From positions 1-31,276 of IMG/VR virus record IMGVR_UViG_2534682222_000020: DNA of 31,276 nt. One strand, 5' to 3'. This document shows, piece after piece, positions 21,260-31,276 of this stretch (its first letter is position 1; the number at the start of each line of letters is the position of its first letter). Position numbers and translations under genes: made by a program. The stretch comes from a virus. Lineage: Duplodnaviria > Heunggongvirae > Uroviricota > Caudoviricetes. Under the pieces are notes generated by a model. That model was not told the DNA's origin. It saw only the letters and a program-made list of their open reading frames with translations, and did no database searches.

Positions 21260-22312
21260 TTGAGCAAACAAAGACCCACACGCGGCAGGAAGTATGCCAG
21301 GGAGCAGGCAGATCTCGCCGCCTCACTGAAAGCGTCACCGGAGCTGAACTCATTCACCTTCGACGGCCCATGGCCGGTGAGTGGTGCCAGCGACCTGCTT
21401 GATAACATGTATTGCGCAGACAACGGGCGATACTACGAAACCCCCATTGACTGGTATGGCCTCGCCCGTCAGTTTGGCTATGCAAGCTGGCACCAGTCGG
21501 CGCTTTATTTCAAGCGCAATGTCCTTGCCGGATGCTTTATCCCGCACAAACTTCTTTCCCGCCAGGTGTTCTCCGCCTTCGCGCTGGACTGGTTTGTCTT
21601 CGGGAATGGCTATCTTGAGATGCGAAAAAACCGGCTTGGTGGTTCCTTTGGCTTTCGTCACTCGCTGGCGAAATACACACGACGTGGTTCTGACCTGGAC
21701 ACTTACTGGTTTATTCAGGCCGGGCTACAGGATCACATGTTTTCAACGGGCTCGGTATGTCACGTTCTCAGCCCGGATATTCACCAGGAAATATACGGCA
21801 TGCCTGAGTATTTCGCTGGCCTGCTGTCTGCAAACCTGGCCCATTCTGCTGACAAGTTCAGAAAGCTCTACTACGACAACGGCTCGCACGCTGGCTGCAT
21901 CGTCTACGTTAACAGCGCGATGGCCGACCAGGAGAGCCTTGATAAGCTCAAAAAGACGCTGACGGATACCCGGCGGGGCGGTGCGTTTAAGAACATCCTT
22001 CTGCACGCACCTAACGGCGGCAAAGACTCCGTGCAAATACTGCCATTCAGCCAGATATCGGCTAAGGATGAGTTTGTGGGGGTGAAGTCTTCCACCCGCG
22101 ATGACATGCTGGCAGCGCACCGGGTGCCGCCGCAACTGATGGGAGCCATTCCGGAAGGGAACGGTTCATTCGGTGATATTGAGAAAGCGGCTCGCGTGTT
22201 CGCCGTCAACGAGCTGACACCCTGCATGGAAGCCATGAAGCATGTTAACGACTGGCTGGGTGAGGAGGTGATTCGCTTCAACCCTTACGCATTGCTTGAA
22301 CCCACGAAGTGA
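21260..22312 (+). CDS. Q: Portal protein Q
   Basis: 350 aa directly after P; start codon uncertain (TTG at 21260 in the ORF track). Confidence 0.75.
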   Translation: MSKQRPTRGRKYAREQADLAASLKASPELNSFTFDGPWPVSGASDLLDNMYCADNGRYYETPIDWYGLARQFGYASWHQSALYFKRNVLAGCFIPHKLLSRQVFSAFALDWFVFGNGYLEMRKNRLGGSFGFRHSLAKYTRRGSDLDTYWFIQAGLQDHMFSTGSVCHVLSPDIHQEIYGMPEYFAGLLSANLAHSADKFRKLYYDNGSHAGCIVYVNSAMADQESLDKLKKTLTDTRRGGAFKNILLHAPNGGKDSVQILPFSQISAKDEFVGVKSSTRDDMLAAHRVPPQLMGAIPEGNGSFGDIEKAARVFAVNELTPCMEAMKHVNDWLGEEVIRFNPYALLEPTK

Positions 22313-22545
22313 TCTCCTGGCCGCATCGTCATTTCTGGCGGTGCGGTACCACCCGCAGCACCATCATTTCCGTCCATATCGGCCACTCACGAAACACAAA
22401 TAAATCACTCCCCCTGTCAGACGCAGCCAGCGCGCTTCTGGCGCGACTTCTCTCGCGCTACCGCTTTGTTCAGCCATCAACATGAGCGCCCGACAGACGG
22501 CGAATGGCAGAGGATATGACCCCCTGCCTGACCCCCTTTGCGCGC

Positions 22546-22565
22546 GCTTGCTCCCCCGCCTCGCC
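22546..22565. other. Candidate cos site (cohesive-end region)
   Basis: Reverse complement of gcttgctcccccgcctcgcc is ggcgaggcgggggagcaagc; first 12 nt match my recollection of the P2 cohesive end (GGCGAGGCGGGG...). Located just after Q, as in P2. Confidence 0.5.
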
Positions 22566-22703
22566 TGCGCGCTAAACCGACCTCTTTTTGTGCACTTTGT
22601 GCAGGCCGCCCAGGCCCCGCCAGCGCTGGGGCGGCATGGAAAAAACGTTGTTTCAAAAATTGTGCAAATTTGTGCAACTTTTTGCATCCGCGCGGCCCCA
22701 TTT

Positions 22704-23402
22704 TTACACCTGATCAACCTCGCCGAGCGCCACCATAATCGCCAGGCGCTCAGCAGGCGGTAACGCTGCAAATTTTTCCTTCCAGCGCTGCGCCTTTCGC
22801 TTGATTCGATAGCGATCATTGTAATTTTTACCTGCAAAAGTATGCGAATAAGCGCGCCCCTCCTGGTAGTTCATCCAGATCTTCTCTGTCCTCACCCCGC
22901 CGCGCGTCATTGCCTGAAACTCTCGGGCGCGCCAGTCATGTAACATGCGGTCATAAAATCCTGACGGATAGCCCGATAAAATTACGCTGACGTTATCCGG
23001 GAGATCGCGTAAACGCGTCAGCAATCGTTCATGGTCTTTAACAGAATACTCGCACCGATAGCGCGCAGAGCTGCTTCGCGTTTCATGCAGATAAGGCGGA
23101 TCAGCGTAGATCAGCACCCGGCCAGCATAAGAATAATCAAAGCGCTCCAAAAACGTCACCGCGTCACCGACGTCAATAAACAGACTATCGCCCAGAGCAT
23201 CCAGAAATTCATGATTACTCTGGTTAAATGCCTCAATGGTCAGCGGATCAATATCAATCCCCCAACTGACTTTCGCCGGTGGCTTACGTAGCATGACAGC
23301 GCCACCGCCCAAGTGAGTTTCGATGTACGTGTCATGCGGTGGCATCTCGGCAATAATTTTTTGATAAACACCGCTCGCCGCTTTGCTTCCCAGATAGCTC
23401 AT
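22704..23402 (-). CDS. Orphan Dam-class (D12) N6-adenine DNA methyltransferase, short form, in cos-proximal cargo position
   Basis: ORF 22704..23438; preferred ATG 23400..23402 (MSYLGSKAA); motifs YLGSK, THLGGGAV (SAM binding), DPPY (catalytic). No adjacent restriction endonuclease candidate. Confidence 0.7.
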   Translation of the reverse strand: MSYLGSKAASGVYQKIIAEMPPHDTYIETHLGGGAVMLRKPPAKVSWGIDIDPLTIEAFNQSNHEFLDALGDSLFIDVGDAVTFLERFDYSYAGRVLIYADPPYLHETRSSSARYRCEYSVKDHERLLTRLRDLPDNVSVILSGYPSGFYDRMLHDWRAREFQAMTRGGVRTEKIWMNYQEGRAYSHTFAGKNYNDRYRIKRKAQRWKEKFAALPPAERLAIMVALGEVDQV

Positions 23403-23514
23403 AACTTTCTCGTTCCCAAAAAAACCAACCTGCAGCACCGCCTAAAATGACGTTGCTCGATAGAATGGCCAGAACCGTCAAAAGCGACCATGGCTGACCA
23501 TCTCACTCACTGCT

Positions 23515-26154
23515 TCAATCCTGTCTTTTTCGTTTAGCCGCCTTCTTCCAGCGCGTGACCAGGTCACACACCGCCACGTATTCAGACGTCGGTTTATCTT
23601 TCTCACCGGCACGCCATGCCTTCACTTCCTGCAACCGGCCATTATTCATGGCGAGCAGTCCGCCGCCGTGGCGAACGCGGGCACCGCCAGCAATCGACCT
23701 CACAACATCATCGCTGACGAAAATCCTGCAACTACGCAGCTGCGCGCCGATGCTGGCGATGGTTTCCTGGCTGACCCCGCCTTGTTTCGCAGCCTCTCTT
23801 TTCTGTACCTGCCGCAGCGCCGCTTCGGCTTTTTTCTTCTGGTATTCCGCAACTGCGGCGGCATAGTTATCCGCACGCAGCTCCGCTTCGGTCCGCAGCT
23901 GTTGTCGCCAACGCTGTTCTGCCTCTTCTGGTGTCAGGCTCATATCTTTCGCTGCGGCCACTTTTGGCCCCCACGTCAACGCAGTTTCATCATCAACAGA
24001 CGTGCGCAGACCGCGCGCGGTACGCTCGAAGGCTTGATCTGAGCTTTCGCGGCCAAAGTTTTTCAGTCTGCTGGTGATTTCCTGCCGTTGCTGGCGTGAA
24101 TATCGGCGCAAATCTTCGATATTCAGCGGAAGTTCTGTCATCTGACTGTCCGGGTGATCAATACCGGCATGCATCGTCGGTTTTGACGGTGTGGTACCAG
24201 CTGGCACCGCCACTTTTAACGGTGGTTTTTCGTCCGTTCCGGAGCGCCCCGTACAGTTATTGACAGAACTCCGAGGGGCCGCTGCGCGGCCTTCTAAGGT
24301 CAAAATCTCGACCGGCGACGGCTTACGCTTCGGCACAATCTTGTAATCGGTGGTGCGGGTAAAAATGACTGATTCGCTGCCCGTATAAGGGCAATAAACG
24401 CCAGTAATTTTGGCGACCGTGTCCCCATAATCATTGCCATTTTCGGTGAATTCATAGTTAAGCCGAACGCGCAGGCAATCGCGCGCGACAAATGGCCCGC
24501 CCTGAGCGTTGGTGTATCCCGGCCAGTCTGGCGCATCGGCTGCTGCCCGTGCCGCTTCCAGTTCCGGATGTAATACCAGCTCGCGACTACCTAACCGGCG
24601 CAATTCGCGCCAAGTGGTAACGGGCGCACCGCCAATCTGCTGAAACTGGCGGATATTCCAGCGTGAAGCCCAGGCGCGTACACGCTTTGCCATCTCCCTG
24701 ACCGGCTGGCCTGACTCAAGATCCACTTCACCATCCATGCCGTAGCCATCGATGTTTTTCGAGATGTATTTCGCGATATAGCCTGTTGCAGACCCAAATT
24801 GCTCGTCCATCGGCGTAACAGTAAAACGGTGCTCTGAAGCACCTTTCTCGTTACCGTCCTCTTTCATGGCGTGTTTGCGGAAAATGGCTGTTGCATACTC
24901 TACTTCCTCAGGACGGAGGAAAAGCAACAGATGCCAGTGAGGGGTTCCATCGTGGTGAGGCTCTGCAACACGAAAACCAAACGTGCGAATACCTTCGCGA
25001 CTCCATTTGGCTCTGACGCGCGCCCAGACTTTGCAAAGGTATTTTTGCGTCTGACGCGGGCTGGCGTGCTGGTACTTATCGTTTCGTCTGCCTGACTGGA
25101 CATGTGTTGAGTGGTAACGCGACGGCGCTGTCAGCGTGTAGAACATGCCAACCAGCCCCATTTCATTCGCCATATCCTCAAACCCGCGCATGCGCACCAT
25201 CAGCTCATGCCGCGCGATCTTCGGGTTGGAAACACTACCCATCACCTTATCCAGTAATGAGCTGCGCTCGCCGGTGTCCTGGTCTTCCAGCTCCATCGCC
25301 TGAAGGAATTCGAAGTTCGCTTTTTTCTGCGCAACCCATTCCCTGAAGCATGGATCAGAGCAATATGGTGAAGCCACTTTGCTGACATAGCCGGTCGCGA
25401 TCATAAGATGTTCGCGCCAGCAGTCATGGATACGGCGGATTTTGTTAAGCCACCATTTTTCGGAATGAAGTCTGCCAGCGGCACGCAGCGCCTCGTCGGC
25501 GTCCAACTCTTCATCGCAATAACGCGCCCATCCGGGGATCGCGATATTGAGCGTCGCCGCCTTGCTCGCTATAGCCCCGTATGCGTAAATCGACGAAAAC
25601 TCAAGATCGGATGTTTGTTCATACTGAAAATCAAACTCGCGCATAAACTCGCTTTTCATCAAGTTCGCAAGCTTATACGCCAGTCTTTTCAGGCGCTTTT
25701 TGTCCGCCCACGGCAGCAGGTGAAATTCATCACGCAGCGGAAGAAGAAGCGCCGGGAGCGTACTTTGTGGGAGGTATTGCGCGTTAACCGCATCAACACG
25801 GCGTAAGACATGCCGCTCAAACGTACCGAACAGCCAACGCACGACGTCTTTTGGCTTGCTGCGTTCGAGGTTTTCAAGGTGCTGCGAGAAGCGCTTACGG
25901 ATAAACGCCGGGAGCGTTTGCACCCGGCGGCGGAGGTAGTTAGCGCGGCCATTTCGATCAAATGCCTCACGCGCATCGCCCTCGCGCGGGCGCAATGGCG
26001 CGCGGTATACCGTATCAACCAGATCACCATAAGCGAGCGCCCTGCGCTCGCCTTTCGGTGTCAGATACTCAATGGCTGAACTTTCGGTTTTATGGGGGTT
26101 GATGGCCTGCCGTTTGGTATTCCATTCCCATGCTAAGGCGGTGAGATCTGACAT
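23515..26154 (-). CDS. A: Replication initiation endonuclease A (rolling-circle, HUH type)
   Basis: 879 aa; HUH-like motif TPHWHLLLF and tyrosine region GYIAKYISK; AGGTGG RBS before ATG 26154; last large gene of the early operon. Confidence 0.85.
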   Translation of the reverse strand: MSDLTALAWEWNTKRQAINPHKTESSAIEYLTPKGERRALAYGDLVDTVYRAPLRPREGDAREAFDRNGRANYLRRRVQTLPAFIRKRFSQHLENLERSKPKDVVRWLFGTFERHVLRRVDAVNAQYLPQSTLPALLLPLRDEFHLLPWADKKRLKRLAYKLANLMKSEFMREFDFQYEQTSDLEFSSIYAYGAIASKAATLNIAIPGWARYCDEELDADEALRAAGRLHSEKWWLNKIRRIHDCWREHLMIATGYVSKVASPYCSDPCFREWVAQKKANFEFLQAMELEDQDTGERSSLLDKVMGSVSNPKIARHELMVRMRGFEDMANEMGLVGMFYTLTAPSRYHSTHVQSGRRNDKYQHASPRQTQKYLCKVWARVRAKWSREGIRTFGFRVAEPHHDGTPHWHLLLFLRPEEVEYATAIFRKHAMKEDGNEKGASEHRFTVTPMDEQFGSATGYIAKYISKNIDGYGMDGEVDLESGQPVREMAKRVRAWASRWNIRQFQQIGGAPVTTWRELRRLGSRELVLHPELEAARAAADAPDWPGYTNAQGGPFVARDCLRVRLNYEFTENGNDYGDTVAKITGVYCPYTGSESVIFTRTTDYKIVPKRKPSPVEILTLEGRAAAPRSSVNNCTGRSGTDEKPPLKVAVPAGTTPSKPTMHAGIDHPDSQMTELPLNIEDLRRYSRQQRQEITSRLKNFGRESSDQAFERTARGLRTSVDDETALTWGPKVAAAKDMSLTPEEAEQRWRQQLRTEAELRADNYAAAVAEYQKKKAEAALRQVQKREAAKQGGVSQETIASIGAQLRSCRIFVSDDVVRSIAGGARVRHGGGLLAMNNGRLQEVKAWRAGEKDKPTSEYVAVCDLVTRWKKAAKRKRQD

Positions 26155-26160
26155 ACACCA

Positions 26161-26335
26161 CCTAAACCGTCACTGTGTCACCGGGCTGAACCTGGCGAGC
26201 ATCTTTTTCGGTATCACGGATAATGGTCGTACGGCTGTACCTGCCCCAGCTCAACACCTCCACCTCAACGATCCAGAAATGGCGGTATGGGCGAACGTCG
26301 AGCACGCGAGTGATCACTGCATCAACTGTGTTCAT
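26161..26335 (-). CDS. Small hypothetical protein (57 aa), translationally coupled
   Basis: Not in ORF track (below cutoff). Hand translation: MNTVDAVITRVLDVRPYRHFWIVEVEVLSWGRYSRTTIIRDTEKDARQVQPGDTVTV; ATG overlaps the upstream stop (ATGA at 26332..26335); stop 7 nt before A's RBS. Confidence 0.45.
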
Positions 26336-26538
26336 CGGGTGGCGACCTCCCGAATCTCTTCGATTGAGTCAAGCAGCAGTCGACGGCGGGTATGTTCGGC
26401 AAAGTGACGTTTGCCGGTGTCTTTCCGGTAGCACTCTGTCTTGCCGACTACCCACATGGATTCCGTCTGGTGCAACTTCTTGCGCTGCGGGCCGTCTTTG
26501 GTAATAACGATGCCCGTATGAGTCTTTTTAATGGTCAT
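26332..26538 (-). CDS. Small hypothetical early protein (68 aa)
   Basis: ORF begins at the Dam stop and ends in the ATGA overlap with the next small ORF; basic; no recognised motif. Confidence 0.45.
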   Translation of the reverse strand: MTIKKTHTGIVITKDGPQRKKLHQTESMWVVGKTECYRKDTGKRHFAEHTRRRLLLDSIEEIREVATR

Positions 26539-27503
26539 CAGAAAGGCTCCTGCGTTTCACAGCCCTTGGCAGGGTCGAAGCCTAAAAACATCTCGCCGTA
26601 AGTCGCATTCCCCATTACCGGCCCACAATCCGGGCAGCAACCACCGCCAGCACGATCGCAGCCATCACACACGCGAAGAACGCCAATAACCTCGCCAGCC
26701 ATATCGCGGCTTTTGGCGCTCACAGAGCGGCGGACACTCAGGGAGTGAAGGTTGAAGGCGGAATAAATTTCGCGAGTTTCAGGCGTGTCGCTGTTTGAGA
26801 TGATCGAGCGGGTGGCGTACTGACGGTTAACAGCCACAAGAGCCGCTACCAGAGCGCGATGATCAACCAGGGTAAAGGGTTTGCCGTAAGCGGTGAAATT
26901 GGCGGTATCGCTCGCAGGAATATAGGGCGGGTCACAATAAATCACCGCGTCATGCGCGAGTTGCATAACGTCAGGGATAGATTGGCGGAAATCACTATGG
27001 ATAAAGACCGCTTTTGTGTCGCTGGCCTTTTCGGCGAATAAGCGCATTTCCGCTTCAGGAAAGTAAGGCTCGGCATACTTACCGAATGGAACGTTGAATT
27101 CGCCCTTCTGGTTAACGCGATACAGACCGTTATAGCCATGGCGATTCAGATACAGGAAATACGCGGCATAAAGCATTGCTGCGTCCGGATCAGAGTCAGC
27201 CTGGCGGGCCAGTGAATTGAACTCTGTGCGCCGTCTGTAGTATTCCTCCGCACTGTTTCCGCCTTTGAAAGCCCAGCGGCAGGCGGCAATAGCGTCTTCT
27301 TTGCGGCCGGTTAATTGTCGGAAAAAATTAATCAGTGCGATATTGCTGTCGCAGAGAACGTAGCGGCGGTAATCCGTGTTCATAAACACAGTTCCACTAC
27401 CCACAAACGGCTCAATCAGACAATCCGCTTTCGGCAAATGCTTAAGCAGCTGCGGCATAACGCGGGTTTTTCCTCCCGCCCATTTGATTGGCGATCTGAT
27501 CAT
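26538..27503 (-). CDS. dam: Dam-family DNA adenine methyltransferase with Cys-rich C-terminal extension
   Basis: 321 aa; PIKWAGGK, EPFVGSGTV, LYLNRHGYNGLYRVN, FNVPFG, YCDPPY align with recalled E. coli Dam along its length; about 45 extra C-terminal residues with CDGC...CCPDC; ATG 27501..27503 overlaps the upstream stop. Confidence 0.85.
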   Translation of the reverse strand: MIRSPIKWAGGKTRVMPQLLKHLPKADCLIEPFVGSGTVFMNTDYRRYVLCDSNIALINFFRQLTGRKEDAIAACRWAFKGGNSAEEYYRRRTEFNSLARQADSDPDAAMLYAAYFLYLNRHGYNGLYRVNQKGEFNVPFGKYAEPYFPEAEMRLFAEKASDTKAVFIHSDFRQSIPDVMQLAHDAVIYCDPPYIPASDTANFTAYGKPFTLVDHRALVAALVAVNRQYATRSIISNSDTPETREIYSAFNLHSLSVRRSVSAKSRDMAGEVIGVLRVCDGCDRAGGGCCPDCGPVMGNATYGEMFLGFDPAKGCETQEPF

Positions 27504-27727
27504 TTGCGAAACTCCTGGTTGTAGGTTTCATGGGTCATGAGTCGCCACTGAGCGCCGCCGTTTTTGCTAAGCAAGCGCCAGCGACGGCCAATGCGGATCA
27601 CGAGATAGGCGTGCGGTTTGACGCGGGAGAAGTTGTGCTGACCACGTGAAAAACATTTCAGGGCGGCAATCGCCCTGGTGCATACAGGCAATGGCGCGCT
27701 GCAAACGATTGAAAGACGCGGATGCAT
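27500..27727 (-). CDS. Small hypothetical early protein (75 aa)
   Basis: ORF 27500..27739; preferred ATG 27725..27727 (MHPRLS...) with GAGGG RBS; basic, Arg/Trp-rich; stop overlaps the Dam start. Confidence 0.45.
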   Translation of the reverse strand: MHPRLSIVCSAPLPVCTRAIAALKCFSRGQHNFSRVKPHAYLVIRIGRRWRLLSKNGGAQWRLMTHETYNQEFRK

Positions 27728-27735
27728 GGTGGCCC

Positions 27736-28284
27736 TCACAATGTTTCAAGGTGAGGGGAGGTCAGACGTTGCCATATCTCGCAGGCTTGCTCGGCTTGAT
27801 AGGCAGCATCGGTCAACATATAGGTAGCCGTTGACCTACGTGGATGGGGGGCATAACCGGTAACGCCTGCCAGCATGATCAGAGAGGCAAGGCAACGCAG
27901 TTTGAATGCGACGAATTGATGTCCCAAATCGTGCCTTCTTGCCGCATGGATTAACCACTGCGGCACTCGAGCAGAGCCCACAGTCCAGCAATTCAACTCG
28001 GTATGCAGGGAAGCATTTTCGCGAATGAAGGAAAAAAGCCCCGCTACCGCATTAAGTTCAGTGCATGTCGCAGAGATAACCTCTGCTCTTTGATGGGCAT
28101 CTCCTTTAAGCAGCTCCAGCACTGCTTCTGGATCGATATATTCAACAGTGCGAAGGTCTACAGCCCGATAATATTGCGGGCCTAACTTTCCTGTTGATGG
28201 CTCGAAGAAAACACACTCAATAGCAAAGATTGGCGAATCTGGCGCTTTCCCCAGCGCTCGAATATCTAACATGAAGTTATTCAT
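27736..28284 (-). CDS. Hypothetical early protein (182 aa), possibly degenerate DEDD-type exonuclease fold
   Basis: ATG 28282..28284 with GAGGA RBS, ATGA-coupled to the upstream ORF. Weak motif resemblance only (AIECVFFEPSTG; Y-x3-D in YMLTD); function unassigned. Confidence 0.4.
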   Translation of the reverse strand: MNNFMLDIRALGKAPDSPIFAIECVFFEPSTGKLGPQYYRAVDLRTVEYIDPEAVLELLKGDAHQRAEVISATCTELNAVAGLFSFIRENASLHTELNCWTVGSARVPQWLIHAARRHDLGHQFVAFKLRCLASLIMLAGVTGYAPHPRRSTATYMLTDAAYQAEQACEIWQRLTSPHLETL

Positions 28285-28505
28285 TGTTTGTTATCCTCGT
28301 TAATGGTTAATTCGCGGCTTGCGATCCACCGCTCGACTGATGAATAAATCTCTTCTGGTGTGGCGCTTTCCTTTTTCAGCTGGCCGACAAAAATACGAAG
28401 CAACCCCAAAAGGTGGGCGCGTTCGTGTTTTCGTGCGTTGGTGCTTATCTCTACAAACTCCGGATCACTTATTTCGCCATCCAGCTTTATTGACTTAACC
28501 GACAT
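28281..28505 (-). CDS. Small hypothetical early protein (74 aa)
   Basis: ORF 28281..28526; preferred ATG 28503..28505 (MSVKSIKLDGE) with CAGGAGG RBS. Confidence 0.45.
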   Translation of the reverse strand: MSVKSIKLDGEISDPEFVEISTNARKHERAHLLGLLRIFVGQLKKESATPEEIYSSVERWIASRELTINEDNKQ

Positions 28506-28572
28506 GCAACCTCCTGAAAAAGGCAAAACGAATCCCCGGCAAAATAAATGCCGTTAATTTAAGCCTGCTTAA

Positions 28573-28845
28573 TTAGTGGTTAGGGCGAGGTTTTCTTTTA
28601 ACCTGTTTAAACAACCTTTCGTGCCAGTAATAAAGAAAATCAATAAAGGTCATTCGCGCACGCTCGTGATTACCTCGGATTGTTTTCTCCAGCCCGTAAA
28701 TAATCAGATCAATAGACGGGCTATCTGGCGCAATGATAATGCGATTTCCGTTTTTCAAAATTACTGTAAAACCCTGCTCCGCATTTTCTACCGCCTCGCG
28801 GATCAGCATTTCCCGTTCCCACGATGTTTTCTCTTCAGTAAACAT
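28573..28845 (-). CDS. Hypothetical early protein (90 aa)
   Basis: ATG 28843..28845 with AAGGGG RBS; no recognised motif. Confidence 0.45.
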   Translation of the reverse strand: MFTEEKTSWEREMLIREAVENAEQGFTVILKNGNRIIIAPDSPSIDLIIYGLEKTIRGNHERARMTFIDFLYYWHERLFKQVKRKPRPNH

Positions 28846-28862
28846 GTAAGCCCCTTTTCTTG

Positions 28863-29090
28863 TTACAAGAGTTTTTTAAATGCTCTTGCCAGGGTAGCCA
28901 GCACGCCTTTATTTATCTTTTTTGTATAAATAAAAGGTTTGCTCATTTCCTTAACAAAACGAACCTTATTAGGCTCCGGCTTAAAGAAACGCCCGTCCGG
29001 GCATTCAACCCAGCCCCGCGTATTACGGTAGTGTGTAACCTGACAACCATTTTTCAGGAGGCTTGCAAGTGATGGGATCTCTTCGTTCAT
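28863..29090 (-). CDS. Hypothetical early protein (75 aa)
   Basis: ATG 29088..29090; basic C-terminus; no recognised motif. Confidence 0.4.
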   Translation of the reverse strand: MNEEIPSLASLLKNGCQVTHYRNTRGWVECPDGRFFKPEPNKVRFVKEMSKPFIYTKKINKGVLATLARAFKKLL

Positions 29091-29102
29091 ATCGTATACC
29101 TG

Positions 29103-29276
29103 TTAAAGTTGCCCGCGTGCTTTGCGCTCTACTTCTTCCCGGCGCGCTTTAAATTCTGATAAGGCTTTTTCTCTTTTCTGCCTAACTTTCTTGCAGTGCA
29201 ACCTGATTAAAAGCTGAATCAGGCTTATTACTGCGATAGAAAAAATTAAGAGCCCAACAATCATTTCAAGCTTCAT
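29103..29276 (-). CDS. Small single-pass membrane protein (about 57 aa)
   Basis: ORF 29103..29285; preferred ATG 29274..29276 (MKLEMIVGLLIFSIAVISLIQLLI, one TM helix) followed by a strongly basic/charged tail. Confidence 0.45.
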   Translation of the reverse strand: MKLEMIVGLLIFSIAVISLIQLLIRLHCKKVRQKREKALSEFKARREEVERKARGQL

Positions 29277-29481
29277 ATTTTTCACCGCGCTTTAATCTAT
29301 CAATGGTCACCATTGCCTCTGCAAACGCAAAATCAATACCGAAATAGCAGCCGCCGTGCGTAATCTGATATCGCTGGCGGCTGTATGGTTTTTTGCGTGG
29401 GAGTTTCAGAATGGTAAAGCCACGGTAAAGGCTGGTTTTACTATTCAGCTGCGTCACCGCTCCGCCAAATCCACTTTTCAT
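29266..29481 (-). CDS. Small hypothetical early protein (71 aa)
   Basis: ORF 29266..29523; preferred ATG 29479..29481 (MKSGFGGAV...) with GGGAGGGGG RBS; first gene after cox. Confidence 0.45.
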   Translation of the reverse strand: MKSGFGGAVTQLNSKTSLYRGFTILKLPRKKPYSRQRYQITHGGCYFGIDFAFAEAMVTIDRLKRGEKYEA

Positions 29482-29507
29482 GTTCCCCCTCCCTGAAGCG
29501 GTTCGCA

Positions 29508-29780
29508 TTAAAGCCCCATCCACAACAACCAGGCATCACGCTGTTCTACCGGGCGGTTGTAATACGCCTCACGCACAGCACGATTGAACTCAGGGATGTA
29601 AACCCAGCGCTCACCGGCGCGTGCGTTCGGTTTGGTTGGGTCGCGCAGTTCAATCACTGGCAGCTTTCGGGCTTTGATCATTTCTTCTACTGCGGTCTTA
29701 GGTTTGCCGATCAGCTCGGCGAACTTCTCCACATGGACAGCATCAAGCGGATATTTGATTGCGTAATCGCTCGCTTCCAT
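29508..29780 (-). CDS. cox: Cox (excisionase and lysogeny-promoter repressor)
   Basis: 90 aa; FAELIGK..AV..MI...KLPVIE..DP....RAGE.WVY.P..N.......RP.E.RD.WL.W.GL matches recalled P2 Cox; divergent from C. Confidence 0.85.
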   Translation of the reverse strand: MEASDYAIKYPLDAVHVEKFAELIGKPKTAVEEMIKARKLPVIELRDPTKPNARAGERWVYIPEFNRAVREAYYNRPVEQRDAWLLWMGL

Positions 29781-29932
29781 CGTTCACGCTCCTGTTAGCT
29801 CGTGTTAATCTCGTAAGATCCAGCCCTTTCTAAACCGTTTGAAAACGTTCTAGCGGCTGGCTTTCACTCCTCGCAAGGTTCCATAAACGAACCTTGATGA
29901 GGCAAATCTAGTTCTAATTTGGAACTCTGTCA
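29781..29932. promoter_or_regulatory. Immunity switch region (expected face-to-face early and repressor promoters with operators)
   Basis: 152-bp AT-rich intergenic region between divergent cox and C; short inverted repeats gttc-N7-gaac (29911..29925), ggttc-N7-gaacc (29877..29893), and near-palindrome ctaaaccgtttgaaaacgttctag (29830..29853). Promoter hexamers not confidently assigned. Confidence 0.5.
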
Positions 29933-30226
29933 ATGACCTTTGAAGAGAAGCTAAAGCTGATCCGCAGTGCGGAAGAGATCAACCAAGCACAACTTTCTGA
30001 TATGACTGGAATTTCATTAAGTACGTTGAAGAAGATTGAGGCTGGGTATCACGATCCGGGCTGGAATGTTTTAAGCAAGATCACTCAACATCCCCGCTTT
30101 CAGAAATACACGCTATGGCTGATGACTGACAAAACCTCCCCGCAGGCTGGTCAGATTGCACCGGCCCTCGCGCACATTGGGCCAGACTCGCCGGAATCAG
30201 ACCAATCCGAGAAACAGACTGGCTAA
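29933..30226 (+). CDS. C: Immunity repressor C
   Basis: 97 aa; Q.T.P.F.KYTLW.MT....P..GQIAPALAH.G matches recalled P2 C repressor; followed by int on the same strand. Confidence 0.85.
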   Translation: MTFEEKLKLIRSAEEINQAQLSDMTGISLSTLKKIEAGYHDPGWNVLSKITQHPRFQKYTLWLMTDKTSPQAGQIAPALAHIGPDSPESDQSEKQTG

Positions 30227-30245
30227 CAGTTTATAAACATTACAT

Positions 30246-30274
30246 TTTCACTATTTGTTACCAAGATAGTGAAA
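30246..30274 (+). other. Perfect 9-bp inverted repeat between C and int
   Basis: Seen: tttcactat-ttgttaccaag-atagtgaaa; 21 nt upstream of the int ATG; no T-tract. Confidence 0.4.
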
Positions 30275-30295
30275 TCTGCGCCGGAGGGCTTTCTT

Positions 30296-31276
30296 ATGTC
30301 GATTAAGAAGCTCGATGATGGTCGCTACATGGTGGACATTAGACCGCGCGGGGCAGCAGGACGCCGCATCCGCAAGACGTTTGACAGAAAGGCAGAAGCT
30401 ACCGCGTTTGAGCAATACACGATAGCGAACGCCAGCCAAAAAGAATGGGCTGGTAAGCGCGCCGACCGGCGGCCTTTAAGTGAGTTGCTCGATGCCTGGT
30501 GGCGGTATCACGGGCAAAACCATGAAAACGGCAAAAAGGAATTCAATCACCTTTTGAAAACAATAAGTGGCCTCGGCGATCCCGCCGTTAGCCGGTTAAG
30601 CAAAAGGGATTTAATGGATTACCGCTCAAGCCGTTTGAATGCCGGGATCAAGGCATCAACGATTAATCGCGAGATGTACCGATTATCCGGCATGTTTACG
30701 AAGTTAATACAGATAGAGGAATTTAGCGGGCAACACCCTGTTAACGGGCTTCCACCACTGGCGGAAGAAAACCCGGAAATGACATTCCTGGAGCGGGAAG
30801 AGATCAACAGTTTGCTGAGCGTGCTGGAGGGGGATTATCTGTTAGTTGCCCTACTGTGCCTGAGCACCGGCGGAAGATGGTCAGAGGTCGCCACGCTTAA
30901 GCGGTCGAATATCGTTAACTGCCGCGTCACGTTCCTGAAGACCAAGAACGGGAAAAAGCGAACGGTGCCGATCTCTGAAGAGCTGGAAAACAAGGTGAAA
31001 AAAGAGGCCAGCGGGAAGCTGTTCAAAGTGGATTATGAAAGGTTCTGCAAGATACTGCGGGCGGTGAAGCCGGATATTCCGGAAAACCAGGCAACACACA
31101 TCCTGCGACACACCTTTGCAAGCCATTTCATGATGAACGGCGGGAATATTATCGCACTGCAACAGATTCTGGGACATGCGAATATTCAGCAAACGATGGT
31201 CTATGCGCACCTGTCGCCTGACTACCTGCAAAACGCGGTTACACTGAATCCATTGCAGGGAGGAATTGCGGCATAA
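30296..31276 (+). CDS. int: Tyrosine integrase (P2 Int family)
   Basis: ORF 30269..31276; preferred ATG 30296 (MSIKKLDDGRYMVDIRP) with GGAGGG RBS; C-terminal catalytic region HILRHTFASHFMMNGGNI...LGHANIQQTMVYAHL with the nucleophilic Tyr; stop at 31274..31276. Confidence 0.9.
   Translation: MSIKKLDDGRYMVDIRPRGAAGRRIRKTFDRKAEATAFEQYTIANASQKEWAGKRADRRPLSELLDAWWRYHGQNHENGKKEFNHLLKTISGLGDPAVSRLSKRDLMDYRSSRLNAGIKASTINREMYRLSGMFTKLIQIEEFSGQHPVNGLPPLAEENPEMTFLEREEINSLLSVLEGDYLLVALLCLSTGGRWSEVATLKRSNIVNCRVTFLKTKNGKKRTVPISEELENKVKKEASGKLFKVDYERFCKILRAVKPDIPENQATHILRHTFASHFMMNGGNIIALQQILGHANIQQTMVYAHLSPDYLQNAVTLNPLQGGIAA

Follow-up and report, generated by a model that had tools for sequence, protein, structure and literature searches.

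A phage Dam-family methyltransferase carries a conserved Cys4 module related to a segment of RecE

Escherichia coli Dam holds and reads its GATC target through residues K9, Y119, N120, L122, R124, P134 and Y138, as seen in Dam-DNA crystal structures. RecE, the exonuclease VIII of the Rac prophage, is needed in its full length for efficient linear-linear recombineering, and we know of no function that has been assigned to its residues 1–563 over several decades. Here we describe a gene in which a Dam-type catalytic domain is followed by a short C-terminal segment that, judged by sequence comparison, is recognisably related only to a stretch without annotation in RecE and in RecE-like phage proteins. 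The gene lies in the IMG/VR virus record IMGVR_UViG_2534682222_000020; the stretch analysed, called the window below, comprises 31,276 nucleotides (positions 1 to 31,276 of that record) and is a P2-like (Peduovirus-type) prophage. The gene is a complete open reading frame (ORF) of 321 codons plus stop, with an ATG start, at 26538..27503 on the minus strand, and encodes a Dam-family methyltransferase.

Compared with E. coli Dam (M.EcoKDam; PDB 2G1P and 4GOL), the phage protein has kept the FxGxG motif, the DPPY motif and the residues aligned with the GATC contacts, but it is phage-borne and encoded in an early operon, and a tail of 44 residues, which consists of a Cys4 knuckle and an acidic end, stands in place of the 9 final residues of Dam. 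The methylase itself is an ordinary phage Dam; such enzymes are common, and the gene had already been annotated. What is new, as far as our searches could show, is the Cys module of about 30 residues, which is undescribed in Pfam, NCBIfam, PDB and the literature searched. We favour, by a modest degree of confidence, the reading that the protein is an early Dam of a P2-like prophage, most likely GATC-specific, with an accessory and portable Cys4 and acidic tail that would dock DNA enzymes on a common partner.

The C-terminal module and its relatives

The alignment with E. coli Dam stops at query residue 277, which is Dam residue 269 of 278, and leaves residues 278–321 (44 aa) as an extension with two parts. 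Residues 278–306 (VCDGCDRAGGGCCPDCGPVMGNATYGEMF; 26586..26672, minus strand) form the Cys4 knuckle module, in which the conserved cysteines are spaced as C279-x2-C282-x7-C290-x2-C293 (CxxC-x7-CxxC) and are followed by GPVMG(D/N)(A/S)TYx(E/A)M(F/A). Residues 307–321 (LGFDPAKGCETQEPF; 26541..26585, minus strand) form an acidic C-terminal end whose last residue is F. In Dam tails, in RecE-type proteins and in small proteins alike, the four cysteines are invariant or near-invariant. A preliminary description of this DNA had reported a Cys-rich tail of about 45 residues with a CCPDC element; the extension indeed proved to be a genuine conserved module, but the CCPDC reading was slightly off, as C289 is variable among homologues (C, F, Y, N, W, L or G) and the conserved set is C279, C282, C290 and C293. 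C314 is variable, too.

The pattern CxxCG ... CPxCG is the signature of rubredoxin-type zinc knuckles. The tail resembles such knuckles and zinc ribbons in its two CxxC knuckles with G and P in the typical positions, and differs from them in having only 7 residues between the knuckles. Given the four invariant cysteines, the module probably binds one zinc ion. No significant match of the tail to the zinc-finger families of Pfam was found.

The tail was compared among the 120 best homologues, which include proteins of Enterobacter, Citrobacter, Klebsiella and Salmonella. Of these 120 proteins, 95 retain the strict motif C-x2-C-x6-9-C-[PQ]-D-C-G, about a dozen more show it with point changes, and about ten are clean shorter proteins of ~283–295 aa. 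The same tail is found on Dam proteins that are only 43–57% identical to the one described here (L014, L015, L027, L029, L039, Hafnia, Trabulsiella and Kosakonia), and in every viral locus examined a P2-type gene A, 98% down to 37% identical, lies just downstream of the gene for Dam plus module. By these comparisons the fusion of Dam and tail is old. Counting by the Nei-Gojobori method gave a dN/dS of ~0.1–0.25 for codons 276–306 where dS was measurable, and in distant pairs dN was 0.13–0.26 in the module versus 0.39–0.58 in the methyltransferase domain. As read from these substitution rates, the tail is under purifying selection, and the constraint on the module is no weaker than that on the enzyme. 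The preliminary description had proposed a stop codon in related sequences as the sign of a frame artefact; such a refutation fails for most relatives, as the motif count and the dN/dS values make clear.

The gene also has a mosaic character. In comparison with locus L008, the methyltransferase part has a dS of 0.79, and the last 46 codons show 3 synonymous changes and 0 replacements; further downstream, the two ORFs that follow Dam (68 and 57 aa) are 98.5% and 96.5% identical as proteins, respectively. This contrast in divergence within the Dam gene (26541-27503 against L008 and L009) points to a recombination breakpoint near the junction of domain and tail, that is, to a mosaic boundary.

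The link to RecE was found in several searches. The NCBIfam model for exodeoxyribonuclease VIII (NF007259) gave a local match to residues 277–306 (model positions 526–555, E 4.4e-5), and in pairwise BLASTP residues 517–544 of K-12 RecE were identical to the knuckle at 17 of 28 positions (61%, E 4e-12). The module further matched PHROG 20376 (E 4e-9), and no family of Pfam covers it, neither in the Dam tail nor in the matching RecE segment. RecE shares with the phage Dam the Cys4 knuckle with CPDCG(P/A)VMG(D/N)ATYxE(M/T)F. In contrast to the Dam tail, the RecE copy is internal, embedded in an acidic linker ~20 residues before the nuclease domain (which starts at residue 564), and is not followed by an F-terminated end; the catalytic domain is a PDDEXK nuclease instead of a methyltransferase. 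The DNA of the Dam and RecE copies is 65% identical, and third codon positions match at only 12 of 28, which argues that the likeness was kept by selection on the protein and does not stem from recent transfer. A 2023 review describes the N-terminal region of RecE as being of unknown function (PMC11611040), and a 2025 paper mentions a 'shuffling of partner interaction domains' in lambdoid recombination modules, which was left unanalysed (PMC12315714). Our literature searches returned no description of the module and no experiment on it.

To survey the carriers of the module, an exhaustive phmmer search was run with the 46-residue tail against 1.84 billion representatives. It gave nine true matches, namely small proteins of 79–192 aa that bear the module at their C-terminal end or close to it, a 539-aa protein, a 991-aa RecE-like protein and another Dam. 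A scan of IMG/VR for the core pattern revealed that the core is encoded in at least 553 viral contigs, from which 80 loci were kept for the analysis of architectures. In the largest group, a RecE-like N-terminal region is followed by the module and an Rv2179c/DnaQ-like 3'-5' exonuclease (~813–823 aa). Other proteins consist of Dam and module (~302–328 aa), of a RecE-like N-terminal region, module and PDDEXK nuclease (~890–1042 aa), or of a RecE-like N-terminal region, module and a nuclease-less tail of 116 residues (~690 aa); the last probably correspond to the 'RecE-2' proteins of PMC12315714. In the long carriers, the module forms an island amid Q/E-rich low-complexity linkers. Among the one-genome-per-species representatives of GTDB, the exact core, (C)PDCG[PA]VM, was present in 21 loci, all of them Enterobacterales except for two metagenome bins and one Oceanisphaera variant. 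A search of a 5.8-billion-protein collection with the module profile returned three short fragments only, and its word index evidently misses the module where this is part of a long protein. Among the three, P0132 proved to be left over from a RecE-like gene of a lambdoid prophage.

Among these carriers, the lambdoid proteins of ~820 aa (annotated 'exodeoxyribonuclease VIII' or 'exonuclease'; PHROG 2082 and 20376) resemble the locus described here in two respects: they carry the same module, and their exonuclease domain has a homologue in the 182-aa exonuclease that stands alone two genes upstream of Dam. They differ in phage type and in that the module is fused upstream of the exonuclease and not to Dam. 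The module and the Rv2179c/DnaQ-like exonuclease family hence recur together in two unrelated phage types, i.e., in the window and in lambdoid loci (L018, L092). Variant modules were seen in a 151-aa ORF of Plesiomonas (L105) and a 196-aa ORF of Oceanisphaera (L107), where CPDCG(P/A)VMGDATYQEM is kept and the first CxxC is replaced by C-x6/7-C-x2 ahead of CPDC, giving four cysteines with altered spacing. These two carriers matched 0 of 5 reference domains (Dam methyltransferase domain, RecE 1–500, RecE nuclease domain, 182-aa exonuclease and gene A protein). In the Rac prophage of K-12 (L004, 6839-7009), the 56-aa YdaE, annotated as zinc-binding, is encoded two genes upstream of recE with racC in between; it showed weak sub-threshold Pfam matches (metallothionein-like and Rtr1-like) and no evident relation to the module.

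The methyltransferase domain and a second methyltransferase

The methyltransferase domain covers residues 1–277 (26673..27503, minus strand), with FxGxG, DPPY and the Dam-aligned residues. Pfam PF02086 (D12 methyltransferase) matched residues 8–260 with an E-value of 1.6e-57 and 195.6 bits against a cut-off of 22, and TIGR00571 ('dam') scored 246 bits against a cut-off of 114.85. In contrast, NF008152 (PRK10904), the equivalog of the host Dam, scored 253.1 bits, below its cut-off of 441. By these scores the 321-aa protein is a member of the Dam family and not an orthologue of the chromosomal Dam. E. coli K-12 Dam aligned with it at 45% identity over 279 residues (E 3e-73), and chains of the Dam crystal structures were recovered by a PDB sequence search (E 9e-65), so that the full-length Dam homologue of the preliminary description is confirmed.

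The order of motifs is that of the alpha class: the AdoMet-binding FxGxG (EPFVGSGTVF, residues 31–40) is N-terminal to DPPY (residues 191–194), and both align with E. coli Dam. Further, K7, Y124, N125, L127, R129, P139 and Y143 pair with K9, Y119, N120, L122, R124, P134 and Y138 of E. coli Dam, respectively. From these aligned residues we strongly infer that the phage enzyme would be specific for GATC. Every sequence-level feature of the Dam family that could be tested was found in the protein. GATC is not avoided in the window, which holds 160 sites as compared to 118.6 ± 10.4 expected. The site is over-represented relative to dinucleotide-preserving shuffles, none of which reached 160, and two GATC sites (27493-27496 and 27498-27501) are located at the start of the Dam gene itself.

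The window encodes a second, short gene resembling adenine methyltransferases (22704..23402, minus strand; 232 aa from its ATG), which is located between gene A and the portal gene, in a cargo position. It has DPPY and GxG in the alpha-class order and belongs to PHROG 56 ('DNA methyltransferase'). Its match to the Pfam D12 family is marginal (E 8e-5, 22.9 bits, cut-off 22), it scored 33.5 bits with TIGR00571, below the cut-off of 114.85, and a PDB search with it found nothing. With the 321-aa Dam it aligns only around DPPY (31% over 36 residues), and the whole segment that bears the GATC-contacting residues of Dam is missing. Since this recognition region is absent, the two methyltransferases are likely to differ in specificity. 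The preliminary description had counted two D12-class adenine methyltransferases in the prophage; a D12-like gene is indeed present at this position, but without the recognition region of Dam and below the threshold of the 'dam' family it does not qualify as a Dam. An identification with M.EcoGII was rejected, as M.EcoGII is a beta-class enzyme with the opposite order of motifs. The protein might be one of the small, promiscuous phage methyltransferases of the alpha class to which PMC5778455 refers.

The presence of two methyltransferases in a single prophage had been called unusual, which did not hold: the same pair is present in the prophages of E. coli PCP06171 and C 236-04A and in several Klebsiella phages, and an extra Dcm-type cytosine methyltransferase is encoded in C 236-04A, in the Klebsiella record CP052639 and in the tail-less lineage.

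The early operon and neighbouring genes

A near-identical copy of the prophage (99.9% over 1451 bases) adjoins cpxP in E. coli PCP06171, and the counterpart of the Dam gene in that prophage is annotated 'DNA adenine methylase' (WP_000621358.1). On the minus strand of the window, the genes follow one another in the order cox, several small ORFs including a Fil homologue, the 182-aa exonuclease, a 79-aa ParE-like ORF, Dam, a 68-aa ORF, a 57-aa ORF and gene A of 879 aa. The gene cox (29508-29780, minus strand) stands at the head of the early operon. Upstream of it, at 29905..29933 on the minus strand, we found a promoter-like site, TTGACA-17-TAGATT, a match to the consensus only, which is likely to be the early promoter of the operon that bears Dam. 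The gene order from cox to gene A and this site agree with the placement of Dam in the early operon given in the preliminary description.

Two genes upstream of Dam, in the same operon, lies the Rv2179c-like 3'-5' exonuclease (27736..28284, minus strand; 182 aa). It is followed by the 79-aa ORF with a ParE-like toxin domain (27500..27739, minus strand; PF24732, E 1e-18). The ATG of Dam (27503-27501) overlaps the TGA (27502-27500) of this ORF as ATGA, and the TGA of Dam (26540-26538) overlaps the ATG (26538-26536) of the 68-aa ORF as TGATG; the translational coupling of start and stop to neighbouring ORFs that had been noted before can thus be read directly from the DNA. Downstream of Dam, the 68-aa ORF (26332..26538, minus strand; PHROG 1226) and the 57-aa ORF (26162..26335, minus strand; PHROG 8110) are both of unknown function. 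They lead to gene A in the same operon, the P2-type replication initiator of 879 aa (23515..26154, minus strand; PF05840, E 3e-104). The Phage_GPA domain of the gene A protein spans residues 155–471 only, and its ~400 C-terminal residues are without a Pfam match.

The ParE-like ORF is translationally coupled to the start of Dam, and no obvious antitoxin is annotated. A ParE-like homologue of ~60% identity is encoded beside Dam in distant relatives, upstream in L015 and downstream in L014, and the ORF is absent from several other tail-bearing loci. A strong terminator-like hairpin (7 pairs, 6 of them G-C, then a T-rich run) is located at 27659-27677 on the minus strand, within the ParE-like ORF and just upstream of Dam on the coding strand. 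Across 22300-30300, 22 terminator-like sites were counted versus 9.6 ± 3.1 expected, an about twofold excess. No Rfam family was matched anywhere in the window.

Possible roles of the tail

Taken together, these findings suggest the following mechanism. Dam would be expressed from the early promoter together with the replication genes, in translational coupling to the adjoining ORFs, and would probably maintain full GATC methylation of fast-replicating phage DNA where host Dam is scarce or lacking. The tail would be a portable two-part unit, composed of a Cys4 knuckle of ~30 residues, probably with one zinc, and a short acidic peptide ending in F. The same knuckle module recurs in the N-terminal region of RecE, in the lambdoid fusions of a RecE N-terminal region with a DnaQ-like exonuclease, in the nuclease-less RecE-like proteins and at the C-termini of small phage proteins. 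Its task may be to dock DNA-processing enzymes on a common partner, and this would most likely be a host protein of Enterobacterales located at sites of replication or recombination.

The evidence for docking comes from the module and its carriers. The module is acidic, with a net charge of 0 to -5 across 25 copies and no conserved basic residue, and it is carried by enzymes of unrelated fold and chemistry as well as by small proteins without any enzyme. This acidity, the disordered acidic linkers or termini in which the module sits, the unrelated carriers and a conservation above that of the carriers all argue for docking on a constant partner and not for the reading of DNA. An obligate partner encoded beside Dam was considered and rejected, as 0 neighbours are common to all tail-bearing loci: the ParE-like ORF, the 68-aa ORF, the 57-aa ORF and the exonuclease are each absent from some of these loci, and the lambdoid carriers share none of these genes. 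Without a constant phage neighbour, an Enterobacterales host protein is the simplest candidate for the partner. We infer the docking role of the tail from these features of sequence and distribution.

Several points weigh against this reading. The GATC specificity is deduced from aligned residues only. The structure prediction of the tail that the preliminary description had suggested was run, and gave models of low confidence only: for the full protein with 65 homologues, AlphaFold2 reached a mean pLDDT of 63, with the tail below 50, and for the tail alone with 37 diverse module sequences a mean pLDDT of 57.5 and no secondary structure. As predictions, these models support neither a zinc fold nor any interface. 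Moreover, clean tail-less Dam genes (e.g. P0083) occupy the same position in the operon, so that the tail is accessory and dispensable for a viable phage. Finally, the collection scans demanded the exact core, and the restriction to Enterobacterales may partly reflect this pattern.

A more far-reaching form of the docking idea, which we offer as a conjecture with clearly more chance of being wrong than right, is that the knuckle is an undescribed portable docking domain of Enterobacterales phages, which tethers unrelated DNA enzymes to one host hub, with help from an SSB-tip-like peptide in the case of Dam. P2-like phages would carry it on Dam, and lambdoid phages on RecE, DnaQ-like exonucleases and small early proteins.

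The acidic end deserves separate consideration in this respect. The last residue is F in 86 of 95 homologous tails, which finish in EPF (40), EGF (29), EAF (7) or ESF (5); the 321-aa Dam ends in ETQEPF. The end has two main forms, LGFDPAKGCETQEPF and AAAGAFDGAEGF. In P0050, P0078 and P0089 the cysteine motif is absent and W-IGFDPAxGFDNGEP(F) is kept, which indicates that selection acts on the end separately from the knuckle. A narrower version of the docking hypothesis, and an unlikely one in our view, is that the C-terminus mimics the tip of the host SSB (DDDIPF-COOH) and puts Dam into the SSB-tail pockets of replisome or repair proteins, or competes with SSB for its partners. Dam would then travel with the fork and methylate nascent phage DNA at once, and the Cys knuckle would serve as a scaffold or a second contact. 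The tip of E. coli SSB (PPMDFDDDIPF) and the tail are alike in being acidic and in ending in (E/I)PF-COOH, and differ in that the former sits on an OB-fold protein and the latter on a methyltransferase. The frequency of terminal F and EPF favours such mimicry, as do the variant ends FDNGEPF and FDGAEGF, which share the F-x5-F-COOH spacing and the acidity of FDDDIPF in SSB, and the survival of the F-terminated end in P0050 and P0089 without the Cys module. PMC5872125 presents the SSB-Ct hexapeptide as a known protein-docking motif. However, the likeness is confined to 4 residues out of 7 over a short acidic stretch, the variant found in the window has a longer F-to-F spacing (FDPAKGCETQEPF), and proteins of the RecE type that carry the knuckle do not end in F. 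From the peptide comparison, the resemblance to the SSB tip is a lead only, of low probability.

Next in rank, and rather improbable, is that the tail acts on the enzyme itself, either as an acidic, DNA-mimicking autoinhibitor until it is displaced, or as a zinc-dependent dimerisation element that alters processivity. The acidity of module and end, the apparently flexible join right after the last conserved element of Dam and the existence of tail-less enzymes, as expected of a regulatory add-on, would all be in agreement with this. A role at the active site of Dam is nevertheless hard to square with the same knuckle in a PDDEXK nuclease, in a DnaQ-like nuclease and in stand-alone small proteins, and the stronger conservation of the knuckle sequence relative to its carriers points to a constant external partner.

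We consider it more improbable still that the tail is a zinc-finger DNA-binding domain that shifts the choice of target, for instance towards single-stranded DNA, DNA ends or a motif longer than GATC. The signature is zinc-ribbon-like, and all carriers act on DNA; a PDB sequence search with the module profile returned weak similarities to the zinc ribbon of TFIIB (E 0.14) and to a Cys4 protein of 68 residues in 9qtr (E 0.016). These hits are non-significant, however, and were the only ones; the net charge range given above, the near absence of conserved basic residues and the acidic flanks do not fit a DNA-binding surface, and the recognition residues of Dam are intact without the tail. That the extension is a frame artefact or decaying, functionless sequence is scarcely credible and is ruled out by conservation and dN/dS: although the region is truncated or scrambled in P0048, P0053, P0078, P0098 and P0105, the frame, the four cysteines and GPVMGxATY are kept down to 43% Dam identity and in unrelated proteins, the region is under purifying selection, and the tail-less form is a clean alternative architecture.

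Returning to the docking of DNA enzymes on a common partner, a sharply conserved module on an unrelated enzyme provides a concrete point from which the unexplained N-terminal region of RecE can be tested. It also suggests that different DNA enzymes are sent to the same place by P2-like and lambdoid phages. If this place were a single host hub, the phage Dam would be a replisome-coupled maintenance methylase, like the eukaryotic DNMT1 on PCNA, and the module would explain part of the contribution of the RecE N-terminal region to linear-linear recombination. A module that recruits to such a hub would further provide a compact tag for directing engineered enzymes there in Enterobacterales.

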